28,677 bases of DNA. Origin: Promethearchaeota archaeon. GTDB taxonomy: Archaea > Asgardarchaeota > Lokiarchaeia > Sigyniarchaeales > SOKP01. The translations under genes and the position numbers were made by a program. Location: the NCBI GenBank assembly GCA_048938445.1, contig JBHLME010000054.1, positions 1-28,677 on the forward strand, given 5' to 3'. Under the pieces are notes generated by a model. That model had not been told where the DNA came from, searched no databases, and saw nothing but the letters and a program-made list of their open reading frames with translations. Positions 14,696-24,639 of the stretch are shown one piece after another (the first letter of the stretch is position 1; the number at the start of each line of letters is the position of its first letter).

Positions 14696-14935
14696 TTTTA
14701 ATGAATCACCTGTAATCTGTTGTTTTTATAAATTATTTGTAAAGTAATTCGTTGAAATCTTAGGATATTCAGTCGATTGTTATTACCTCATATTAATTAA
14801 ATTAACACTTATTTATAGACTTTTGGAATAAGATAAATAATTTATGATTAATTATTATAAAAAATAAAGTAAATTCTGATAAGGTATGAATCACGTATAT
14901 ATAATACTAACTAAACACTATTAGAATGATAAAGA

Positions 14936-15442
14936 ATGGGAGATAATATAGATATTGACACGGAAACCATGCTTGAATTAATGAGATATGCTTTTCTTAG
15001 ATTAGATGGGGCATGGTTTATTGCTTCAGCAGAAAAATTTGGTATAGAAGCTGCAACAGATTTGGATATAAAAGCGTGGGAAAAATATTCTGAAAGATTG
15101 GGAAAAAGAATCGCTACCATTATTGGTTTGAATGGTGATTTTTCTAAAGATTTACCAAAATTAATGAAAGTTAACGATTCTTTAATGAAAATGAATACAG
15201 AACTTACAATTGAAGGTGGAAATAAAGCAATTCACAAGGTTTTTGACTGCGAAATCTGGAAAATGGTTCAAAAGGTATGGTCCCAAGATGAGATACCCTG
15301 TCATAAGGTCACGTTAGCAAGTATCAAGGGTCTATTAAAAGGTGCTTTTCCTCAAAAAGACTTTACTCTTAAGCAAAACAAAAAGATACCACTAGGAGAC
15401 CCTTTTTGTGAGATTCAAATAACTCTAAATAATCCGGATTAA
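14936..15442 (+). CDS. DUF6125 / V4R-like ligand-binding protein
   Basis: LDGAWF...EKFGIEAA...D, then C...C...GDPFCE pattern. Confidence 0.7.
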   Translation: MGDNIDIDTETMLELMRYAFLRLDGAWFIASAEKFGIEAATDLDIKAWEKYSERLGKRIATIIGLNGDFSKDLPKLMKVNDSLMKMNTELTIEGGNKAIHKVFDCEIWKMVQKVWSQDEIPCHKVTLASIKGLLKGAFPQKDFTLKQNKKIPLGDPFCEIQITLNNPD

Positions 15443-15464
15443 TTAATTAATTAGTTAAATCCGG
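15434..15464. terminator. Inverted repeat between convergent genes
   Basis: CCGGATT (15434-15440) and AATCCGG (15458-15464) enclose a TAAT-rich, nearly self-complementary core. Confidence 0.4.
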
Positions 15465-15516
15465 GGGTAATATTTTAAATTTAATTTCTAAAAAAAAATT
15501 TTTAATTTAATTTTAA

Positions 15517-15972
15517 TTAAACCATGCAACTTGAGAAAAAATCCAATACATTCAGCAATTTTTTCTTACTCATATCCATTATCATTCTCACGCACGTTCC
15601 TTTCGCAAGAAGTTGCATGTTTGATTTCCTGAACATTTCATGATAAAAAGTAAAAGAAGTATTCCCAATGTCAATTATTCTTGACTTCACGATTATGATA
15701 TCTCCAAATATAGCTGAATGATCATATGATACCTCTACATTTCTCACGGGAAAGAGAATTCCCTTGTGCACTAAATCCTTGAAAGGAGTATTACATGTAA
15801 AAAAGTTTATCAAATGAACAAAACCATCATCTAAATAAATTAGATAATTCCTAAAATGGACAATACCTCCAGCATCAACATCACTAAATCTAACAGTAAC
15901 CTCTGCTGTATCCTCAATGTCCATTAATTTTTTTTTAAGATCTTCACGTGAACTCGACATTTTTTTATCCAT
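15517..15972 (-). CDS. Acyl-CoA thioesterase, 4HBT/YbgC hot-dog family
   Basis: VRFSDVDAGGIVHFRNYL, FGDII, IGNTSF. Confidence 0.88.
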   Translation of the reverse strand: MDKKMSSSREDLKKKLMDIEDTAEVTVRFSDVDAGGIVHFRNYLIYLDDGFVHLINFFTCNTPFKDLVHKGILFPVRNVEVSYDHSAIFGDIIIVKSRIIDIGNTSFTFYHEMFRKSNMQLLAKGTCVRMIMDMSKKKLLNVLDFFSSCMV

Positions 15973-16095
15973 TAATTGTGTGTTCTATTAAATATAAAGA
16001 ATAAGATTATAAATTTTAAAGTCGTGCTTGCGGATTTATTACTAATATATCATTATCAATATTATAAATTGAAGTAAATTTCACAAGATTGAATA

Positions 16096-16257
16096 ATGAA
16101 AGAGTATAAATTAGTAAAAAAATTAAAGCAAAGCGGCTCTTCAACTTTTAGTACTATGATAAAAAGCAGAGAAAGTCAATTAAAACTGCTTTCTTCAGAG
16201 GGTTGGAGATTGGTAGGTGTTGATCGAAATTTTTTTTATCTTGAAAGAGAAATTTAA
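16096..16257 (+). CDS. Small DUF4177-like protein (53 aa), absent from the ORF track
   Basis: Manual translation: MKEYKLVKKLKQSGSSTFSTMIKSRESQLKLLSSEGWRLVGVDRNFFYLEREI; EYK...EGWxLV...YLER signature. Confidence 0.7.
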   Translation: MKEYKLVKKLKQSGSSTFSTMIKSRESQLKLLSSEGWRLVGVDRNFFYLEREI

Positions 16258-16473
16258 GAAAATAAAATATTGTAACTTTTGCTTATTCTATACAAAAAAC
16301 TATTATTAACTCTTTTTTTAATATTAAACTCTCAATTTTTAACATCAGAATAAGAAGAAACTATTTACTTTAAGAGATTTAAAAAGTTAAAGCGATATTC
16401 CTTTATTATTTTAGTTTTATAATAAATATAATAAAAGTAAAAAATAATAAAAATAAAATTTTACATGTTAAGT

Positions 16474-17292
16474 TTAAATACTTTTTGTGGCAAGTAACTC
16501 CTGAGAAGCACTTGGAGTTTTAAATATCTGGTGTGGTTGGAATATACAGATATTTGTTTCACCCATAGCGTTACTATCAGTTGTTTCTACAAAATATGCA
16601 TAGCTAGTATTTGGTTTAAGTTCTTTTTTGATGATAACTTCTCCTTTGTTCAAACCGGCATCTTTATTGCTAATTCTATCAACAAAAACGTTATCCCACC
16701 ATGTAAGCTTCTGTATGTTGAATTCTGTTGATGTCTTACCTAAAGATAAGCGGTAAATATAATATGCATCGACTCCAGCTGCATCCTTAAGCGTCGTCCA
16801 TTGCACTTTCACATCTTTTAGGGAAGTGCCTTCCGGCATACTATTTAAAGTTCCTGGAAGGTATGAATGTAAAATTTCATCTTTATTTTCAAGATATGCC
16901 TTTACCAACTTTTGACCCGGAGAACTTTTCTGATACCGTGATTTTGAAATTATATTGCCATTTTTTAGTTTAACCTTTATCTTGTACTCACCTTCTTCTA
17001 TGAAACCAGTAGTAAGGTTCACCATGTACCAGCAAGAATTAAATGCTTTGTCAATTATATACCCATTTACATTTTTAAGGTTAAATTCTTGGTTAATAAA
17101 ATTTACTTGATATCCATTAGGTCCATGGGCAGTTATCGAATCGATGTAGTCAGGTATGAAGCCTTTTGCTATCGGAAAGAACGCAATAAGAAACTTGTGC
17201 TGTTCTCTAGCTGTAGTGAAATCATAATCCACATACACATTACATGCCATGATATCATAAATCTGAATTTTAGGTTCTCTCATGATATTCAC
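16474..17292 (-). CDS. Hypothetical beta-rich protein
   Basis: 272-aa ORF with natural composition; no family recognised; ATG at 17283 is an alternative start. Confidence 0.65.
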   Translation of the reverse strand: MNIMREPKIQIYDIMACNVYVDYDFTTAREQHKFLIAFFPIAKGFIPDYIDSITAHGPNGYQVNFINQEFNLKNVNGYIIDKAFNSCWYMVNLTTGFIEEGEYKIKVKLKNGNIISKSRYQKSSPGQKLVKAYLENKDEILHSYLPGTLNSMPEGTSLKDVKVQWTTLKDAAGVDAYYIYRLSLGKTSTEFNIQKLTWWDNVFVDRISNKDAGLNKGEVIIKKELKPNTSYAYFVETTDSNAMGETNICIFQPHQIFKTPSASQELLATKSI

Positions 17293-17409
17293 ATTTTTTA
17301 TAAATTAATTTTAACCGATATCGACCATCTCAATTATTTAGATTATAAAAATTCAGAATGTCCATAATCATTTTATTTGAGATTAATACCGAATAATGTT
17401 TTAAACACT

Positions 17410-17484
17410 ACTATTTTCCAATTAATTTTATTGGAAATAGTCCAATTTAAAATATAAATTTTACTTGTGATTTACAATTGTAAA
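17410..17484. promoter_or_regulatory. Palindromic candidate operators in a divergent intergenic region
   Basis: ACTATTTTCCAAT...ATTGGAAATAGT (17410-17441) and perfect TTTACAATTGTAAA (17471-17484). Confidence 0.4.
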
Positions 17485-17659
17485 CTTTAAGATTATAAAA
17501 AAAATATGATTACAAGAGTAAATTAATGAAGATTAGAAAATTCCAAAGATAAATTTTAACTCAAGCTTAAACTTTAAAACAATTCAAAAATAAATTCTCA
17601 ATTATTAATAATTAAAAAACTTCAAGAACTTTACATTTAATTAGTAAAAGAGGATAAAA

Positions 17660-18049
17660 ATGTTTGAAAAACTAAAAACAAGCCAAGCGGCAATCACGGT
17701 CTTCCCCTTCGGAATATATTTAATGATATTAGGAACCATAATTGCCATTCATCCCGCACTTTTATTGAGTCTCGCTGGCATTGAACACTTTGACGTGATC
17801 GCACGTCTGATGGGGATGTTAACAGTAATATGCGGTTATTTTTACACTCGATGTGCTCTCGAAGGAATAAAAATGCAAAAGTTTTTTTGGTTTACGACCC
17901 ATACACGTTCAGTACAAATAATTGTAGTAGTTTTGTTTATTATTTTCGCTGAGGGCAACTTGCTCCTTTTAGGATTTAGTATAGTGGATCTTGCCGCATG
18001 TATTTGGACGATTTTTGCCCTTCGGAAGGATAAAAAGAAAGAGATTTGA
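17660..18049 (+). CDS. Hypothetical 4-TM membrane protein
   Basis: SD-like GAGG before the ATG; four hydrophobic helices. Confidence 0.75.
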   Translation: MFEKLKTSQAAITVFPFGIYLMILGTIIAIHPALLLSLAGIEHFDVIARLMGMLTVICGYFYTRCALEGIKMQKFFWFTTHTRSVQIIVVVLFIIFAEGNLLLLGFSIVDLAACIWTIFALRKDKKKEI

Positions 18050-19433
18050 AATTAAAACCTCTGAAATTGTATTTTTGGACAACACGCGATCATTAAGAAT
18101 AATAGAGGAGTTTAAATGCATTTCCACGGATTCGAACGGAAATTGGAGGTTTGAATCGATTTCCAAGAAGGATCTAGAGGAAAAGCTGGGAAAGAAATTA
18201 ATTGGCACCTCAGAAAAAATCGTGGCAAATTTCATGTGTAGCACTTCAATAGATATCGATAATATCCAATATGAGATCAAGAACAATCTTAAAGGTCATG
18301 AATATGAGCTCGCAGATCTTCTCAGAAATGCCAAGAAAGAAAGTAGTTCTACATATTATAATAACTTACAAAATGAAATTTTGACTACAACGATATATAA
18401 AATATTAAATTTAATTAACATAAAACTTAAGAGTCAATTAGCTGGTCTTACACTAGAAGAATTCTGCAAGTTTCCAGAAAAGAGAAGCGGAAATTCTTAT
18501 CTTGAACAAATTTTAATGAAACTTCAAGAAAGTTCTCATGAGATACAATCTCATCAACTTGGAAATTCATTTACAATCAAGTTTGGTACTAACGGTGAAT
18601 ATTCGATTACTTTAAGCAAGGCTGAAATTAATAAATATCTTTATTCTGATGTATTACCTGGCATTGTCGAAAGGGGAACATGGTACACATCTTCAAGAAC
18701 CATTGAAGGAATAACGGGTATTCGATATGAATCCCAAGTTGCGATGATGAGCTATTTACAGTTTAAATCCCTTTTTGTTGATACTATAAAACCTTTAAGC
18801 ACTAATGGTAAGATAAGTTATAAAATCTCAAATCCTTCCGATAAACAGTTGTTCTATGACATGAATGAAGAATATACGATTGATATGAACGGAGAGATCG
18901 ATGCAATTGATGATACTAACATAATCCGGTTATATGCCGCCCTCTTTGAAGGAAAAACCATACAGATATGTTTTGAAGAAATGTTTACACCCGAGACTGC
19001 AATCGAGTTTACAAGACTTGGAACAATGGAGGATCTAGATATTGAAGAACAGCAAGAAGCAAATATAATTAATATAATGCTTAATAGGTTTTACACCACA
19101 ACAGGAATGCCAATAACCTATTCTGGAAATTTATATTTGAGAATGCCTTATACTGATGCCGGATGCTTTACAGAATTGTTGCTAGAATATGGAAAAGAAG
19201 AAAATGAAGATCAATGGGAAGTTCAAGCAAAACTTTTAAATAAATATGTTAATTTCAAGAAATTAATTGAAAGATTTAGTGTTAATAGAGAAATGATTCG
19301 GTTTTTTGCTGATAATTTCGATGATAATATATTATTAAACAATGAGGGTTCAGTAAAATTGTTTATTGATTTTCTAAATCAAGGTAAAATTGTTATTACA
19401 GATGATTTGCTTAAACTAAATATTCTAATATAA
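17991..19433 (+). CDS. Hypothetical protein, probably 5'-truncated or with a later start
   Basis: 480-codon open frame; listed start lies 59 nt inside the upstream gene; next in-frame ATG is at 18234. Confidence 0.6.
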   Translation: MPHVFGRFLPFGRIKRKRFEIKTSEIVFLDNTRSLRIIEEFKCISTDSNGNWRFESISKKDLEEKLGKKLIGTSEKIVANFMCSTSIDIDNIQYEIKNNLKGHEYELADLLRNAKKESSSTYYNNLQNEILTTTIYKILNLINIKLKSQLAGLTLEEFCKFPEKRSGNSYLEQILMKLQESSHEIQSHQLGNSFTIKFGTNGEYSITLSKAEINKYLYSDVLPGIVERGTWYTSSRTIEGITGIRYESQVAMMSYLQFKSLFVDTIKPLSTNGKISYKISNPSDKQLFYDMNEEYTIDMNGEIDAIDDTNIIRLYAALFEGKTIQICFEEMFTPETAIEFTRLGTMEDLDIEEQQEANIINIMLNRFYTTTGMPITYSGNLYLRMPYTDAGCFTELLLEYGKEENEDQWEVQAKLLNKYVNFKKLIERFSVNREMIRFFADNFDDNILLNNEGSVKLFIDFLNQGKIVITDDLLKLNILI

Positions 19434-19478
19434 TAAGTTATTTTTTAAATTTTAATTATCAATAATACTATATGAAAT

Positions 19479-20489
19479 ATGAATGCTTCAATGAAATACC
19501 TAAAAAAAAATATCCAAATAACGGATAAGCTAGAATTAGATAAAATTGTCATCGATGAAAGACGAAAAATTGAAAAATTATTGAATAATAATACAAAAAT
19601 AAAATTAATTGGTATTGATGATAAAGGATTTATTAAAGATCTCTATTTATTTGGATATATTGGAAATTTAGATGATTATATTTTTTCAAAATTAGAATAT
19701 CTTTCGATTGAAGAAGGAGAGAATATAATTCAAGAAATTATTACAACCAATATATTACTCAAAGACATATTCATTATTAAAAGTAATATAACAGAAATTT
19801 TTAGCTTTAAAGAATATAATTACATAGAAAATCTAAATTTTAACAATAATTCTATAAAAAAAATCAATAATATAGAAAATCTTGTAAATCTTATTGAACT
19901 TAGTTTAAGAAATAATAAAATTTCTAAAATTGAGGGGTTTAATAATTTATTAAAAATTAAAAAATTGAATTTAGGGAATAATTTCATAGAATCGATTGAT
20001 GGTCTTGAAAGTCTCATAAATCTAAAAGAACTCTCAATACATGGGAATCAAATTGAAGATATCAATGAATTCAAGGATCTATCAACCTTAGAAAAGTTAG
20101 AGAAAATTGATCTTACACAGAATCCTATAAAAGATCTCAATATTACTACTCTATTACCAAATCTTAGGTCAATTTCGTTAGTAGAGTGTGAAATCTCAAA
20201 AATCTCTGCAGTGAAATACTTACCAAATCTTAAAACCATTGCTCTCCAAGGTAACAAGCTTGAAATACTTGAAAACTTTTCTCACGTTCCAAATTTAAGA
20301 AGGATAAATATCAACAGGAATAAAATAGTTTCTTGTGAAAATTTGGAGGGATTACCAAAAGGATGTACCATTGATGGATTTCACGAGGAATATTTTACAC
20401 CTCACGAGAAAAATGAGCTTGAAACTTACCTTAATTCTTTGGGAATTAAATATACATGGCGTTCGGTCAATTATCTAGATGAGCTCTAA
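19479..20489 (+). CDS. Leucine-rich repeat protein (SDS22/internalin-like)
   Basis: About 8 LxxLxLxxNxI repeats, e.g. LIELSLRNNKISKIEG and LKELSIHGNQI; no signal peptide seen. Confidence 0.9.
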   Translation: MNASMKYLKKNIQITDKLELDKIVIDERRKIEKLLNNNTKIKLIGIDDKGFIKDLYLFGYIGNLDDYIFSKLEYLSIEEGENIIQEIITTNILLKDIFIIKSNITEIFSFKEYNYIENLNFNNNSIKKINNIENLVNLIELSLRNNKISKIEGFNNLLKIKKLNLGNNFIESIDGLESLINLKELSIHGNQIEDINEFKDLSTLEKLEKIDLTQNPIKDLNITTLLPNLRSISLVECEISKISAVKYLPNLKTIALQGNKLEILENFSHVPNLRRININRNKIVSCENLEGLPKGCTIDGFHEEYFTPHEKNELETYLNSLGIKYTWRSVNYLDEL

Positions 20490-20661
20490 TCACCTAATTT
20501 TTTCTAATTTCTTAGTAATTTATAGATTCTTATCGCTTAGATAGAGTAAAGTTTACCATATTAAATTGATTATAAATACTTAAATAAATGAAAAAGAGTA
20601 AAAAATATTGTATAAAAATTAAGATAAAAATAATAATATTAAAATAAGTCATAATAGACTG

Positions 20662-21567
20662 GTGAGAATTATCAAACTATTTAAGAAAGAATTAAAGGAT
20701 ATCGATGAATACGATATATCTCAAATAGAAACAAATCCAATGAATTTTGAATCATTAACAATTGAATATAAAGTTAAATTTGATGGTAATGCAGCTGAAT
20801 TAATTAGAGATATAGTACAATTTGCTAATGGTTATGAAGAAGGATATATCTTGTTTGGTATTTCAGATGATCCTATATCCATAATTGGTATTGAAAAAAA
20901 CGAGATAGAAGGCTTAAAAAATATCATAAATGATTTATTACCAAAAAGAATAGAACCTTTAATCTCTCCATTTCCACAATACCAAGCTGTTCCCTTAGCA
21001 AGTGGAAAATATGTATTTATAATTAAGATTTTTCCTAAAGAATATGGAATTTACGGTATAAGGCAATCAGATGATATGAATAATAGAAACTATTATCGAT
21101 ATGAATTTTATAGGCGATTGGATGGAAATAAACATAGAATGAACATTGAATCGGTTGTAGAATTAATTGAAAGTAAAAATAGAGGGCTTCAAAAGCAATT
21201 AAGCATAACAATTCATGGTAGTTATTTATTAGCACAACCAGGTCATCAAGCAGAGCTATATATCGGTATTAAAGCCGTAAATAAATCCGTAAGACCAATA
21301 ATTATAAATTCATACTTACTTGAAATTCCTGAAAAAGAGAAAAGGGTATTAATATCACCATTTCATCCAGAGCATTTAATGATTTGTAGCAGATTGCCTT
21401 ATAAACTAGAAGATGGTGAATCATGTCAAGCATATTTATCAAGACAATCATTTGAAGAAACTATGAATCAAGAAGGTTGGAGCTACCCACTTAAAATCCG
21501 TGGGGTATTTGGTACTAATGATGGTGAATTTCTCTCGGAAATTATTGAATTGAAAGATAGAGAATAA
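20662..21567 (+). CDS. AlbA_2 (Schlafen-like) domain protein with unassigned C-terminal beta domain
   Basis: ESLTIEYK, DIVQFANG, GYILFGISD, FYRR motifs. Confidence 0.85.
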   Translation: MRIIKLFKKELKDIDEYDISQIETNPMNFESLTIEYKVKFDGNAAELIRDIVQFANGYEEGYILFGISDDPISIIGIEKNEIEGLKNIINDLLPKRIEPLISPFPQYQAVPLASGKYVFIIKIFPKEYGIYGIRQSDDMNNRNYYRYEFYRRLDGNKHRMNIESVVELIESKNRGLQKQLSITIHGSYLLAQPGHQAELYIGIKAVNKSVRPIIINSYLLEIPEKEKRVLISPFHPEHLMICSRLPYKLEDGESCQAYLSRQSFEETMNQEGWSYPLKIRGVFGTNDGEFLSEIIELKDRE

Positions 21568-21959
21568 TAATAATGATTTTATTTTAAAAAATTGAATTCT
21601 AACTAAAATAATCCTATTTTAGTAAAACTTAAAGTAACCAACCATCTTGATTTTCATTTTTTTTTATTAATTTCCTTAAATATATTATGATTTTCTATAA
21701 TATTTATTAATAACCATTATTAGAACACGAGAAAGCTTAAAGTGGAGAATCTCCCAAATCAACAACGGTTTTCCTTCTCTCTTTCCCTTCTTCTTTTCCT
21801 TTTTCTTTTTTCTTCTCTCTCTTTCTTCCTTCCCTGTCCTATTCCCCATCTCCCGGAATCCTACCCTCCACTCCTCCGCCAATCCCTAAAAAGGAGAAAA
21901 TGAGGGAGTGGCAGTAGTTGGTTTATTTGAACTAATAATCTTGAATTTCCTTATCTTTC

Positions 21960-22264
21960 ATAGGCCATATGACCTATTTCTTGAAGAATCTCGGGTATCT
22001 CACGAACTGTATAGGTTAGTTCACCTATATTTTAAATTAAGTAAAATTATTATGATCTATAAGTCAACTTACTTATTTTTTTAGGGAATAAGTGATATTT
22101 AAATCAGATAGGACAGCTGACCTAAAATTTAGTAAATTAATGAGATATATTGATTCAACTGAGCTGACCTATTTTATAATAGATAGTATGTTTAATATTT
22201 AGGTAGATTTACCTAAATTAAATGATATTGAGATTTAATTTAATTTTTAAGTGAGTTAACCTAT
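21960..22264. repeat. Array of seven 18-bp degenerate palindromes, about 48-bp period
   Basis: Copies start at 21960, 22011, 22059, 22108, 22155, 22199 and 22247; consensus ATAGGTCAGCTGACCTAT. Confidence 0.85.
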
Positions 22265-22386
22265 AAATCCATCTTTACAAAAAAATTGATTAAAAGGTGA
22301 CAAATGATGATTATAACCCATCATTAATGATTGATCTCGATTAACGTTGCTGGATATTGGGTAAAGTTGAGGAGTATTTTTTTCGC

Positions 22387-22598
22387 ACCCCTTAACTGAA
22401 AATGAGATGCTCAAGCATTCAAGTCTGAATAGATTAAGACTTTTAGGGTATATTCCCATTTTTTCTATTATTAAGTATATTATCCAATGAAAATTATGGT
22501 ATAATATATTAATAATGCATAAAAAAACCAAACACCCCTAAAGACTTAGTGAAAATATGGATTTAAATATTCCTGCTCTAAATTTTCAGTTAAGGGAT
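22387..22598. repeat. Two ~63-bp units in inverted orientation around an AT-rich core
   Basis: CCCTTAACTGAAAAT (22389-22403) is the exact reverse complement of 22582-22596; 22433-22449 matches the reverse complement of 22534-22550 at 13/17. Confidence 0.75.
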
Positions 22599-22908
22599 TT
22601 GATTTTTAAAAATGATCATTTAGATCTCGATCTATTAAGAGCTCCAACAGTCTAATCTTCATAGAAACCGATTAAAGGGTATTTTTTTTTATACCTATAT
22701 AATAATTGTGGATGATTATCTAAACATTCTTAGTTATTATTATAGTATCCTCTAAGGTTAATGACTTATCCATTTCATTATTAAATATCAAACATTTACT
22801 TTAGTTTCATAATAGGACGTTATAAAAGTCATGGATTATTTTAGATAACTATAATCTATTTAGCTAAATATATTAAATATTAGGAAACTTTGCATGAGGA
22901 GAAATTCC

Positions 22909-24639
22909 ATGAAAGAGTCTATAGTCATAAAAAATGGTATCGTGTTTGACCCATTAAATGATATTGACGGAGAAAAAAAGAATATTTATATTAAAGACGG
23001 TCAGGTTGTTGATGAGGTTGATGAGGCAGATGCCAAAGTCATTGACGCTTCGGGAATGATCGTGATGCCCGGTGGCGTTGATCTTCACACCCACGTTGCT
23101 GGGACCAAGGTAAATAGTGGTCGATCCTTTCGACCTGATGATAAACCTCCTGAATATAATGAGGCGAGAACAAAATTAACGCGGGGTGGAACTGGTTTTG
23201 CCGTTCCTTCGACTTGGGTTACGGGTTATCGCTATGCTCGACTTGGATACACGACCGTAGCAGAACCCGCAATGCCACTCTTAGAGGCACGCCATACCCA
23301 TGAGGAATTCAATAACATCCCAATCGTAGACAAGCTGGCAATGCCTTTATTTGGAAATAACTGGTACGTGATGCAGTATGTTAGAGAGGGTGACATTGAA
23401 AAACTTGCAGCATACGTGAATTGGATCCTCAAATCTACTAAGGGATATGCTGTTAAAATCGTAAATCCTGGAGGCGTTGAAAATTGGGCGTGGGGAAGGA
23501 ATTGCGCATCACTCGATGACGAAGTGTTTCATTGGGGGGTAACTCCAAGAACCATCGTGGAAAGCTTGGCAAAAGCTAATGAAATGCTTGAACTTCCACA
23601 TTCAATTCACGTTCATTGTAATAATCTCGGGTCCCCGGGCAACGTGAAGCATTCTCTTGCGACTTTCGACATTCCTAAAAATATCGAACCAAAAAGTTCG
23701 GTGGGACGAGAAAGGTCTTTCCACTGCACTCACGTGCAATTCAATGCGTACGGAGGAACTAATTGGGGAGATTTCGAGTCTGGTGCGTCTCAAGTAGCGG
23801 AATATGTAAATTCTAATAATCATCTTTCCATTGATATTGGGCAAGTAATCTTTTCTAAATATGCCACCACAACAATGACAGGTGATGGTCCATGGGAGTT
23901 CAACCTCCATCATTTAGGAGGCATGAGCCCTTGGGGCGTTAAGCCAGGTGTCAAATGGATTAATGGACAAATCGAAGGAGAATCAGGTTCTGGCATTGTC
24001 CCATACTTCTTTAGTCCCCAAGTTGGAGTTAACGCCGTTCAATGGGCTATTGGACTAGAACTGATGCTTCACATTAAAAATCCATTTCAAATAGCAATGA
24101 CAACGGATCATCCTAACGGCGGTCCATTCACTGCCTATCCAATGGTATTCAAGTGGTTAATGGACAAGAAAGCTCGCGATGAGATGCTTAAAAAATGCAG
24201 TCAAGCAGCAAGTACCAAAACAACTCTAGGAGATATTGACAGGGAATACACGCTTGGTGAACTGTGCACGGTGACTCGCGCGGGTAATGCAAAGACACTG
24301 GGTTTAACAGATAGAGGTCATTTAGGTGCTGGTGCGATTGGAGATGTCGCGATTTACAAGCTAGATCCAAAGAAATACGACGGCAACGCAATTGAAAAAG
24401 CCTTTACATCTGCGGCCTACACCATAAAGGAAGGACAAATCGTGGTGAAAGATGGTGAAATCGTTACCACTCCGATGGGAACGACCATTTGCGCCGAAGG
24501 AAAGATAAAAGTAAGCGCCCATGAAGCCATGTTGGAAGATGTCAAGGCAAACTGGAGGGATCATTACTCCATTAACTTCAATAATTACGCCGTTCAAGAC
24601 ATGTATGTGCCACGATGCAAGGTCGTCAACGGCGCGTGA
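22909..24639 (+). CDS. fwdA: Formylmethanofuran dehydrogenase subunit A (amidohydrolase fold)
   Basis: DLHTHVAGTKVN, HTHEE, KIVNPGG, HSIHVHCNNLG, THVQF, TTDHPNGGPF; GAGGAG precedes the ATG at 22909 (the track starts at 22894). Confidence 0.95.
   Translation: MKESIVIKNGIVFDPLNDIDGEKKNIYIKDGQVVDEVDEADAKVIDASGMIVMPGGVDLHTHVAGTKVNSGRSFRPDDKPPEYNEARTKLTRGGTGFAVPSTWVTGYRYARLGYTTVAEPAMPLLEARHTHEEFNNIPIVDKLAMPLFGNNWYVMQYVREGDIEKLAAYVNWILKSTKGYAVKIVNPGGVENWAWGRNCASLDDEVFHWGVTPRTIVESLAKANEMLELPHSIHVHCNNLGSPGNVKHSLATFDIPKNIEPKSSVGRERSFHCTHVQFNAYGGTNWGDFESGASQVAEYVNSNNHLSIDIGQVIFSKYATTTMTGDGPWEFNLHHLGGMSPWGVKPGVKWINGQIEGESGSGIVPYFFSPQVGVNAVQWAIGLELMLHIKNPFQIAMTTDHPNGGPFTAYPMVFKWLMDKKARDEMLKKCSQAASTKTTLGDIDREYTLGELCTVTRAGNAKTLGLTDRGHLGAGAIGDVAIYKLDPKKYDGNAIEKAFTSAAYTIKEGQIVVKDGEIVTTPMGTTICAEGKIKVSAHEAMLEDVKANWRDHYSINFNNYAVQDMYVPRCKVVNGA
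24567..24639 (+). repeat. Direct repeat copy 1 (fwdA 3' end)
   Basis: 73 bp, 67/73 identical to 26566-26638. Confidence 0.95.

Follow-up and report, generated by a model that had tools for sequence, protein, structure and literature searches.

A phased array of palindromic sites in a Promethearchaeota genome: a possible orphaned iteron field of a mobile-element replication origin

The DNA analyzed here (the window, 28,677 nucleotides) is a whole contig from the assembly of a Promethearchaeota archaeon (G000; 4.63 Mb, 256 contigs, 29.6% G+C, 96.5% complete), in which strong actin homologues and a profilin that reaches the family cut-off agree with an Asgard origin. Between positions 21960 and 22264, seven 18-bp palindromic sites are arranged at a regular spacing. 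Comparison with related genomes suggests that this array may be the iteron field of the replication origin of an integrative mobile element, which would have been orphaned in the genome of the window; we give this explanation nearly, though not quite, an even chance. The only homologue of the array was found in a relative from the same genus (G004). There, it lies beside the gene of a helicase with a predicted fold like that of the primase-helicase (PriRep) of Staphylococcus aureus pathogenicity islands (SaPIs), and beside an inverted repeat that shares its pentanucleotide. The original prediction, made from the letters of the window, had proposed sites for a dimeric DNA-binding protein, such as a parS/centromere-like locus, iteron-like sites, or a mobile-element end. 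The G004 locus favors an iteron-like array tied to a mobile element, and the parS part of the proposal finds no support.

The seven sites were confirmed at 21960, 22011, 22059, 22108, 22155, 22199, and 22247 with exactly the letters first reported, and their spacing and gene-free setting were also described correctly. The start-to-start steps are 51, 48, 49, 47, 44, and 48 bp, and the spacers measure 33, 30, 31, 29, 26, and 30 nt. The period is 44–51 bp (mean 47.8, standard deviation 2.3 bp). When seven sites were placed at random within the same span, none of 200,000 placements was equally regular. Each site is an inverted pair of the pentanucleotide TAGGT...ACCTA, with half-site centers 11 bp apart. 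The sites are listed below with the number of complementary dyad pairs out of nine; a strand is not applicable to them.

21960–21977: site 1, 8/9 dyad pairs; three differences in G004
22011–22028: site 2, 7/9 dyad pairs; unchanged in G004
22059–22076: site 3, 7/9 dyad pairs; unchanged in G004
22108–22125: site 4, 7/9 dyad pairs; the G004 copy is interrupted by a minus-oriented group II intron
22155–22172: site 5, 4/9 dyad pairs here and 6/9 in G004
22199–22216: site 6, 8/9 dyad pairs; pair 7-12 changes on both sides, from A-T in the window to T-A in G004
22247–22264: site 7, 5/9 dyad pairs

The two arms are unequally preserved. The right arm, T-n-ACCTA, hardly varies, and an exact ACCTA is present in six of the seven copies, while an exact TAGGT occurs in two. 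Sites 5 and 7 are poor palindromes. A possible eighth site, TAGTT-N10-AACTA (21915–21934), is off-spacing within itself but in phase with the others, 44 bp (center to center) before copy 1.

The dyad symmetry has been retained beyond chance between the two genomes. Fourteen substitutions separate the seven sites of G000 and G004, and the dyad pairs still number 46 and 44 of 63. A random-substitution null gave 37.9±2.3 (P=0.012) or 36.6±2.4 (P=0.0005) pairs, depending on which sequence was taken as the start; these two tests, computed from both directions of change, are mutually dependent. The unequal arms and the poor symmetry of copies 5 and 7 refine the original description. With half-site centers 11 bp apart, both halves would face the same side of the duplex, as expected for binding by a dimer or by a pair of winged-helix domains. 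As single-stranded DNA, single sites fold with only 0 to −6 kcal/mol. Two of the seven remained unfolded, and only copy 6 was better than all 200 shuffles. The weakness of these hairpins favors recognition of duplex DNA.

The array is also unique in its genome. Three matches to the consensus with at most three mismatches were found in the window against 0.05 expected, and none of 100 shuffles reached three; a density no higher than in shuffles had been named beforehand as evidence against the array. We built a symmetrized position weight matrix (PWM) from the sites of the array itself (leave-one-out scores of 9.5–21.1 bits) and scanned the 4.63-Mb genome. The 305 bp of the array hold seven of the eight best hits and form the sole cluster of at least three hits. 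Elsewhere in the genome, 42 hits reach at least 12 bits. Of the 19 genomic occurrences of the pattern TARGT-N6-ACYTA, four lie inside the array. The best single site elsewhere, at C26:29284, overlaps the stop of a gene and is taken as a chance match.

Pairwise identity among the palindromes of the array is 65%, compared with 32% for the null (z ~10). For the 13-mers beside them, it is 34% upstream (not significant) and 41% downstream (P=0.023) against the same null, and Tandem Repeats Finder called no array with a period of ~48 bp at the locus. The spacers are therefore nearly random while the sites are alike, and the array is not a plain decayed minisatellite. This answers one half of a check suggested earlier, namely whether spacers align as well as palindromes. 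Within the array they do not, but between the two genomes spacers and palindromes are conserved equally, as discussed below.

A blastn search of 61 genomes (G000 and 60 relatives) detected real homology only on contig C88 of G004, with E values of 2.4e-147 and 9.7e-29. A two-site pattern was found in 2 of 135 family genomes, and controls gave no hits. So rare an array is unlikely to serve the host chromosome. The homology comprises a non-coding block of ~650 bp (21635–22283) that is 82.6% identical overall. Copies 1–4 with their spacers are 94% identical, copies 5–7 with theirs 78%, and the stretch 21783–22170 reaches 92.8%. The coding genes of G000 and G004 share 72–77% DNA identity, and other intergenic DNA does not align; this non-coding block is therefore kept at least as well as genes. 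Its flanks are unrelated in the two genomes: in G004, a tetratricopeptide repeat (TPR) gene lies to the left, and to the right an inverted repeat of 120 nt is followed by the helicase gene, with its 3′ end facing the block. In G001, G003, and G005, also members of the genus, the amidohydrolase gene that follows the block abuts other genes of the window with no block in between. The differing flanks and these blockless junctions indicate that the block resides in mobile or variable DNA.

Searches beyond these genomes yielded no further relative of the array. Contigs from four DNA runs gave either an exact match to the window or a G004-like variant, and none of them spans the stretch or contains a joint. 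An exact 23-mer from the stretch just before the array had no hits in metagenome_contigs. A three-site pattern had 97 matches in genome_contigs. None of the 80 examined was a relative, and nearly all of these were plain tandem repeats of bacteria with periods of 7–52 and a barely varying site. In five genus relatives, a looser pattern matched less often than the same pattern reversed, which served as control. In viral_contigs, the two-site pattern matched 17 loci on unrelated phage contigs, some with arrays of identical TAGGTA-N4-TACCTA sites. On two IMG/VR phage contigs (L019, 9017–9217; L024, 12557–12757), five identical 16-bp palindromes of this form are spaced by 28–80 bp, with a sixth copy ~1.9 kb away; their outer half-site equals that of the array. 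Pfam scans of the ORFs flanking the L019 cluster were uninformative.

In G004, the array stands at the 3′ end of a gene train encoding a tyrosine integrase, an AAA ATPase, an unknown protein, and the helicase. The contigs concerned are 2.5–5 kb long, and the ends of the element lie beyond the assembled sequence. Contig C63 overlaps the 5′ part of the helicase gene on C88 (98% identity over 122 residues) and adds the unknown gene (243 aa), an AAA_21/AAA_15 ATPase of the OLD/AbiEii-like kind, and the tyrosine integrase, all on the same strand and reading towards the array. The genes of C63 and C88 are the gene set of a small integrative element. From the helicase stop codon, the distance is 233 nt to the array and ~45 nt to the start of the inverted repeat. 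A complete-looking group II intron inside site 4 (C88, locus L009, 1235–3531, minus strand) is oriented like the element genes. It contains a 487-aa reverse transcriptase/maturase ORF (RVT_N, RVT_1, GIIM) and matches RF00029 and RF02012; the site that it splits differs from the window copy at one position.

The G004 helicase matched TIGR01613 (P4-family primase C-terminal) with 119 bits at a cut-off of 108.7, as well as DUF5906 and D5_N, and it matched PHROG 'DNA primase' families at 1.9e-46. The family is very large, with 19,893 representatives at E ≤0.001. A structural model built on 45 sequences had a pLDDT (predicted local distance difference test) of 90.4. Its best match in the PDB was the SaPI5 primase-helicase 7OLA (E 4.5e-15, TM-score 0.53–0.57, 341–393 aligned columns), followed by the D5/E5 helicases of African swine fever virus and poxviruses. 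This match came by fold search, and phmmer against the PDB sequences gave no hits. The helicase of the element would be of the self-loading P4/D5-family type of superfamily 3 (SF3). Its C-terminal domain (residues ~324–400) has the order helix-strand-helix-helix-strand, read off the secondary-structure line of the model. In our reading, this predicted domain occupies the place of the SaPI winged helix and is winged-helix-like. The protein had no confirmed relatives in viral_contigs or metagenome_contigs.

The gap between helicase gene and array in G004 holds the 120-nt inverted repeat with an inner AT-rich palindrome (L009, 3750–3875). It folds as a stem-loop of −32.6 kcal/mol (DNA fold, z −8.4). 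One arm carries GTTACCTA twice, and the other carries TAGGTAAC and, with one mismatch, GAGGTAAC. The pentanucleotide is that of the array (ACCTA/TAGGT), and the arm motif resembles several right arms of the array. The inverted repeat has three exact hits in ~130 nt compared with a genome density of 1.44 per kb, and the G004 array has seven. The inverted-repeat module is present twice in G004 (L009, 3750–3875; L045, 1–90) and absent from the window.

Some other helicase genes of this group are also followed by repeats. In G004, a second P4-family helicase gene (C96), 29% identical to the first, has directly downstream a region with six copies of GTTGCTGGGTG in both orientations. The GTTGCTGGGTG region also lies beside a helicase remnant on C428. 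A decayed relative of this non-coding region, termed region X, adjoins the array in the window. The region X loci are window 22304–22600, L042 1–454, and L045 140–560; the window copy contains a perfect 15-nt inverted repeat (22389–22403/22582–22596). Across seven related loci, three have a locus-specific 7-mer repeated four or five times directly downstream of the helicase ORF, which at most 11 of 500 shuffles match. A 1.45-kb non-coding region of 19% G+C (L046, G084:C31, 8132–9584) follows a helicase gene of another genus that is 43% identical and contains, downstream of that gene, five copies of AATCCAAT in both orientations; 11 of 500 shuffles reach the same.

From these observations we infer both the origin function and the identity of the binding protein, as follows. 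The order in G004, taken as the intact one, is integrase, AAA ATPase, unknown gene, helicase, inverted repeat, phased array, and C+T tract. The inverted repeat there has an AT-rich core and two motif copies per arm in opposite directions. By analogy with SaPIs, the DNA-binding domain of the helicase may bind the pentanucleotides, and the inverted repeat would be the site of melting and loading. The phased array would then be an auxiliary iteron field for initiator recruitment, copy-number control, or incompatibility. In the genome of the window, the array would be an orphaned remnant, accompanied by the decayed region X, in a variable island upstream of the amidohydrolase gene.

Several observations weigh against an iteron field. 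The period of 48 bp (4.6 helical turns) and the palindromic pairing are unlike the iterons of SaPIs and of classical 22-bp iteron plasmids. The inverted-repeat core is absent from the window, and searches of G000 with two protein queries and with two family profiles (controls responding) detected no helicase of the G004 family. Therefore, the array could function there only in trans, if at all. This agrees with the original statement that no cognate protein is evident in the window, and the lack of the candidate helicase family extends to the whole of G000; the integrase gene of the element was not found in G000 either. Episomal contigs may have escaped binning in an assembly of this kind (96.5% complete, 256 contigs). 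Furthermore, the inverted-repeat module is also present at C428 in G004, beside region X and the remnant of a different helicase (29% identical), so the motif link to one particular helicase is not exclusive, and four of the seven regions downstream of helicase genes have no repeated motif. The homologous sequences are only two and are not independent. Between them, 111 of 126 palindrome columns and 156 of 182 spacer columns (86%) are conserved (Fisher P=0.61). Spacers are thus conserved as well as palindromes, and site-specific purifying selection is not visible. The conservation of the block may only reflect recent transfer.

Alternatively, the array could be another protein-binding cis element of the same mobile element, such as a sopC-type centromere, a packaging site, arm-type sites of an integrase or excisionase at the element end, or stacked operators. 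The dyad sites, the 11-bp half-site distance, the regular phasing, and the mobile-element context with a tyrosine integrase speak for such functions too, and the left edge of the block (21635) meets unrelated DNA in both genomes, as an element end would. However, Pfam scans found no gene of the ParA, ParB, or Seg type among window ORFs of at least 100 aa (a 103- and a 105-aa ORF that overlap larger genes aside) or the ORFs of G004 contigs C88, C63, C428, and C96, and an integrated element needs no centromere. The parS/centromere-like locus of the original prediction finds no support, and the features of a sopC/parS centromere in general are missing: no adjacent partition genes were found, and the spacers are not repeated, so that whole units are not conserved (flanks 34–41% against the 32% null). 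Known arm-type sites of integrases are irregular and non-palindromic, which counts against that variant. Operators are disfavored because the G004 array lies between the ends of convergent genes, with no promoter to regulate. The motif shared with an origin-like inverted repeat beside a helicase gene favors an initiator, and a different cis function of this kind appears improbable. A neutral relic, that is, a 48-bp unit amplified in tandem within the mobile element and now decaying, with sites that have lost sequence-specific function at least in G000, would account for the missing helicase and integrase, the poor copies 5 and 7, the equal conservation of spacers and palindromes, the slight likeness of the downstream 13 nt (41% versus 32%, P=0.023), the visibly decayed region X, and an intron in copy 4 of G004 at no apparent cost. 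It does not readily explain sites that are 65% identical among nearly random spacers, or dyad symmetry above random expectation after 14 substitutions. The identity of the block (82.6%, and 92.8% at 21783–22170), which exceeds that of genes (72–77%), also speaks against a relic, although recent transfer could explain it too. On balance we regard a mere relic as unlikely.

The palindromes might also act as hairpins in RNA or single-stranded DNA, as parts of a structured non-coding RNA, processed repeats, terminators, or stem-loop targets of group II introns. The 341-nt region folds better than shuffles (z −2.9 on the plus strand and −4.4 on the minus strand), and with G-U pairs allowed, the minus strand of either genome can form 51 of the 63 pairs. 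Copy 6 shows one two-sided pair change (A-T to T-A). In G004, the minus strand encodes the intron and every gene of the element, so the array could be covered by transcripts that read through. However, the single-stranded DNA folds of the sites are weak, the folds of the whole region mostly join one copy to another, the arms keep a specific sequence and not just complementarity, and Rfam had no family for the window at the gathering score (lone hit, E 0.48). Hairpins therefore seem very unlikely to be the functional form. Still less can be said for a degenerate CRISPR-like repeat-spacer array, the RNA-based alternative that had been mentioned with the original prediction, for which only the spacer length of 26–33 nt and the conserved AT-rich leader-like flank speak. 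With repeats of 18 nt that are 65% alike, spacers that are 86% shared between species, weak hairpins, no cas gene or domain among the window ORFs, and no CRISPR family in Rfam, it is hardly credible and was rejected. Further candidates were discarded as well. An archaeal chromosomal origin with origin recognition boxes (ORBs) is contradicted by the lack of an Orc1/Cdc6 domain in the window, by the occurrence of the pattern in 2 of 135 family genomes, and by the absence of the array upstream of the orthologous amidohydrolase gene in G001, G003, and G005. Dispersed elements of the REP/BIME (repetitive extragenic palindrome/bacterial interspersed mosaic element) or MITE (miniature inverted-repeat transposable element) type would occur in many copies, and here there is one cluster in 4.63 Mb. 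A classical iteron plasmid origin does not agree with a period of 44–51 bp and dyad-symmetric sites that are not contiguous direct repeats.

As a variant of the replication-origin reading, the ~650-bp block, with its C+T-rich tract and phased array, could be an independent non-coding module. It would pass or recombine from one element or genome to another, persist in the chromosome with no replication gene of its own, and act in trans. We consider this quite unlikely. In one form, the helicase of a helper element would replicate the module as a hitch-hiking mini-replicon or satellite. In another, it could be a decoy that titrates the initiator and renders the cell incompatible with incoming elements of the same family; such a decoy could constitute an iteron-based exclusion device in the variable island, beside Schlafen/AlbA_2, leucine-rich repeat (LRR), and PIN genes.

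The array lies within a gene-free intergenic stretch of 1.3 kb (21568–22893) that contains only ORFs of 53–91 aa. It is bordered on one side by a Schlafen/AlbA_2 gene, which is preceded by an LRR gene, and on the other by the amidohydrolase gene. The other features of this stretch are as follows.

21635–21739, strand not applicable: AT-rich left part of the shared block, 65.1% identical to G004:C88 (71/109 columns); homology begins here
21768–21880, plus strand: C+T-rich tract of 113 nt, 90% pyrimidine, kept in G004 except for a 12-nt indel
21908–21959, strand not applicable: invariant stretch before the array, identical with G004 in 52/52 columns; holds the possible eighth site
22265–22283, strand not applicable: tail of the shared block, 73.7% identical to G004:C88; homology stops here
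22304–22555, strand not applicable: region X, a decayed relative (~65% identity) of the repeat-bearing non-coding region of G004
22780–22893, plus strand: native upstream region of the amidohydrolase gene, compared by eye in four genus members; approximate right limit of the variable DNA, with synteny breaks also considered

The segment 21740–21907 of the block is 82.2% identical to G004. Within it, the C+T tract has a G+C content of ~45% in a genome of 30%. Both strands are open across the tract because stop codons are lacking there. Two of the small ORFs (58 and 53 aa) were compared with G004 by eye, and their substitutions were mostly non-synonymous. The small ORFs across the C+T tract and the array were rejected as genes on this account and because of a shifted stop or unconserved ends. 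A CT-rich intergenic repeat has been reported from one Asgard mobile element (PMC11529989).

In genus relatives, the conserved region upstream of the amidohydrolase gene begins ~110 nt before the start codon, and 22780–22893 is therefore the approximate right limit of inserted or variable DNA. Together with the synteny of the amidohydrolase gene, this conservation indicates that ~14.9–22.8 kb of the window is a variable island with the array at its right end. In G001, the orthologues of the flanking genes have no such island (~14900–22780) between them. In the window, it encodes a DUF6125 protein, a thioesterase, three ORFs without a family (272, 129, and 480 aa), the LRR protein, and the Schlafen/AlbA_2 protein. 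The amidohydrolase gene (Amidohydro_3, 22894–24639) has a G+C content of 44–47% compared with ~30% for the genome, and its DNA is 73–78% identical in four genus relatives. Because it is kept in these relatives, it is not a recent import despite its high G+C content. Neither an integrase gene nor a tRNA gene that could be an integration target was found in the window, and Pfam scans of its ORFs revealed no cas, par, or orc1/cdc6 gene. Protein atlas searches with the 480- and 272-aa island proteins provided no usable lead. When eight ORFs (seven from the window, five of these in the island, and the G004 helicase) were searched against PHROGs and NCBIfam, the unknown proteins had no match.

The cis-acting replication signals of Asgard mobile elements appear to be undescribed in the literature searched. 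The portions of the Asgard mobile-element papers that were consulted do not mention palindromes, iterons, or a replication origin, and one match to iterons concerns Methanoperedens. If the proposed origin is real, it offers a testable pairing of an initiator with its sites, namely a SaPI-like self-loading helicase and the TAGGT/ACCTA pentanucleotide. It would aid the recognition of origins and orphaned remnants in Asgard genomes, and replicating vectors could be developed from it for these archaea, in which genetic work is difficult. Even if nothing but a relic, the array is a marker of a decayed integrative element and of a site of intense gene turnover.

Compared with known systems, the layout in G004 is consistent with the descriptions of SaPI and pRN1 origins, as far as an analogy of arrangement can indicate. 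SaPI origins are described as holding 6–12 iterons of five or six nucleotides that directly follow rep; two or more of them flank an AT-rich center on either side, in opposite directions, and the C-terminal winged helix of Rep, a self-loading helicase, binds them (PMC9371898). The predicted fold of the linked G004 helicase resembles SaPI5 PriRep more than any other PDB entry, and in G004 the helicase ORF is immediately followed by a repeat region, as in SaPIs and related phage-inducible chromosomal islands (PICIs); no such helicase was found in the genome of the window. The number of iterons also agrees, since the window array holds six exact ACCTA and two exact TAGGT with degenerate partners. 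The G004 inverted repeat has at least two pentanucleotides in opposite orientation on each side of its AT-rich center, and the window has region X instead. The differences are the archaeal (Asgard-like) host, a separate field of seven pairs at ~48 bp, and the C+T tract of 113 nt; the window retains the array only. The pRN1 origin is described as a stem-loop of 100 nt that lies downstream of orf904, the gene of the primase-helicase, and the abstract does not mention a phased palindrome array (PMC4234260). Both this element and that of G004 are archaeal and have a long stem-loop just 3′ of a gene of the primase/SF3-helicase type. They differ in that G004 has the array and its helicase matches P4/D5 profiles, and the window lacks the stem-loop.

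The sopC centromere of the F plasmid resembles the array in other respects. It consists of tandem 43-bp units, each with a 16-bp inverted repeat that is bound by a dimeric helix-turn-helix protein. Both are phased tandem arrays (43 versus ~48 bp) in which each unit holds a single short inverted repeat. However, whole sopC units are nearly identical, whereas here only the 16–18-bp sites are similar, and partition genes are not nearby. Classical iteron origins are bound by Rep monomers on direct repeats of 17–22 bp with a phasing of ~22 bp. Inverted pairs of short motifs recognized by an initiator helicase are also known from the GAGGC pentanucleotides of SV40 large T antigen and the sites of papillomavirus E1. 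There, the pentanucleotides are gathered into a single compact palindrome, and the DNA-binding domains are unrelated to that of the element helicase. The array shares with them the inverted pairing of pentanucleotides and differs in having seven sites distributed over 305 bp.

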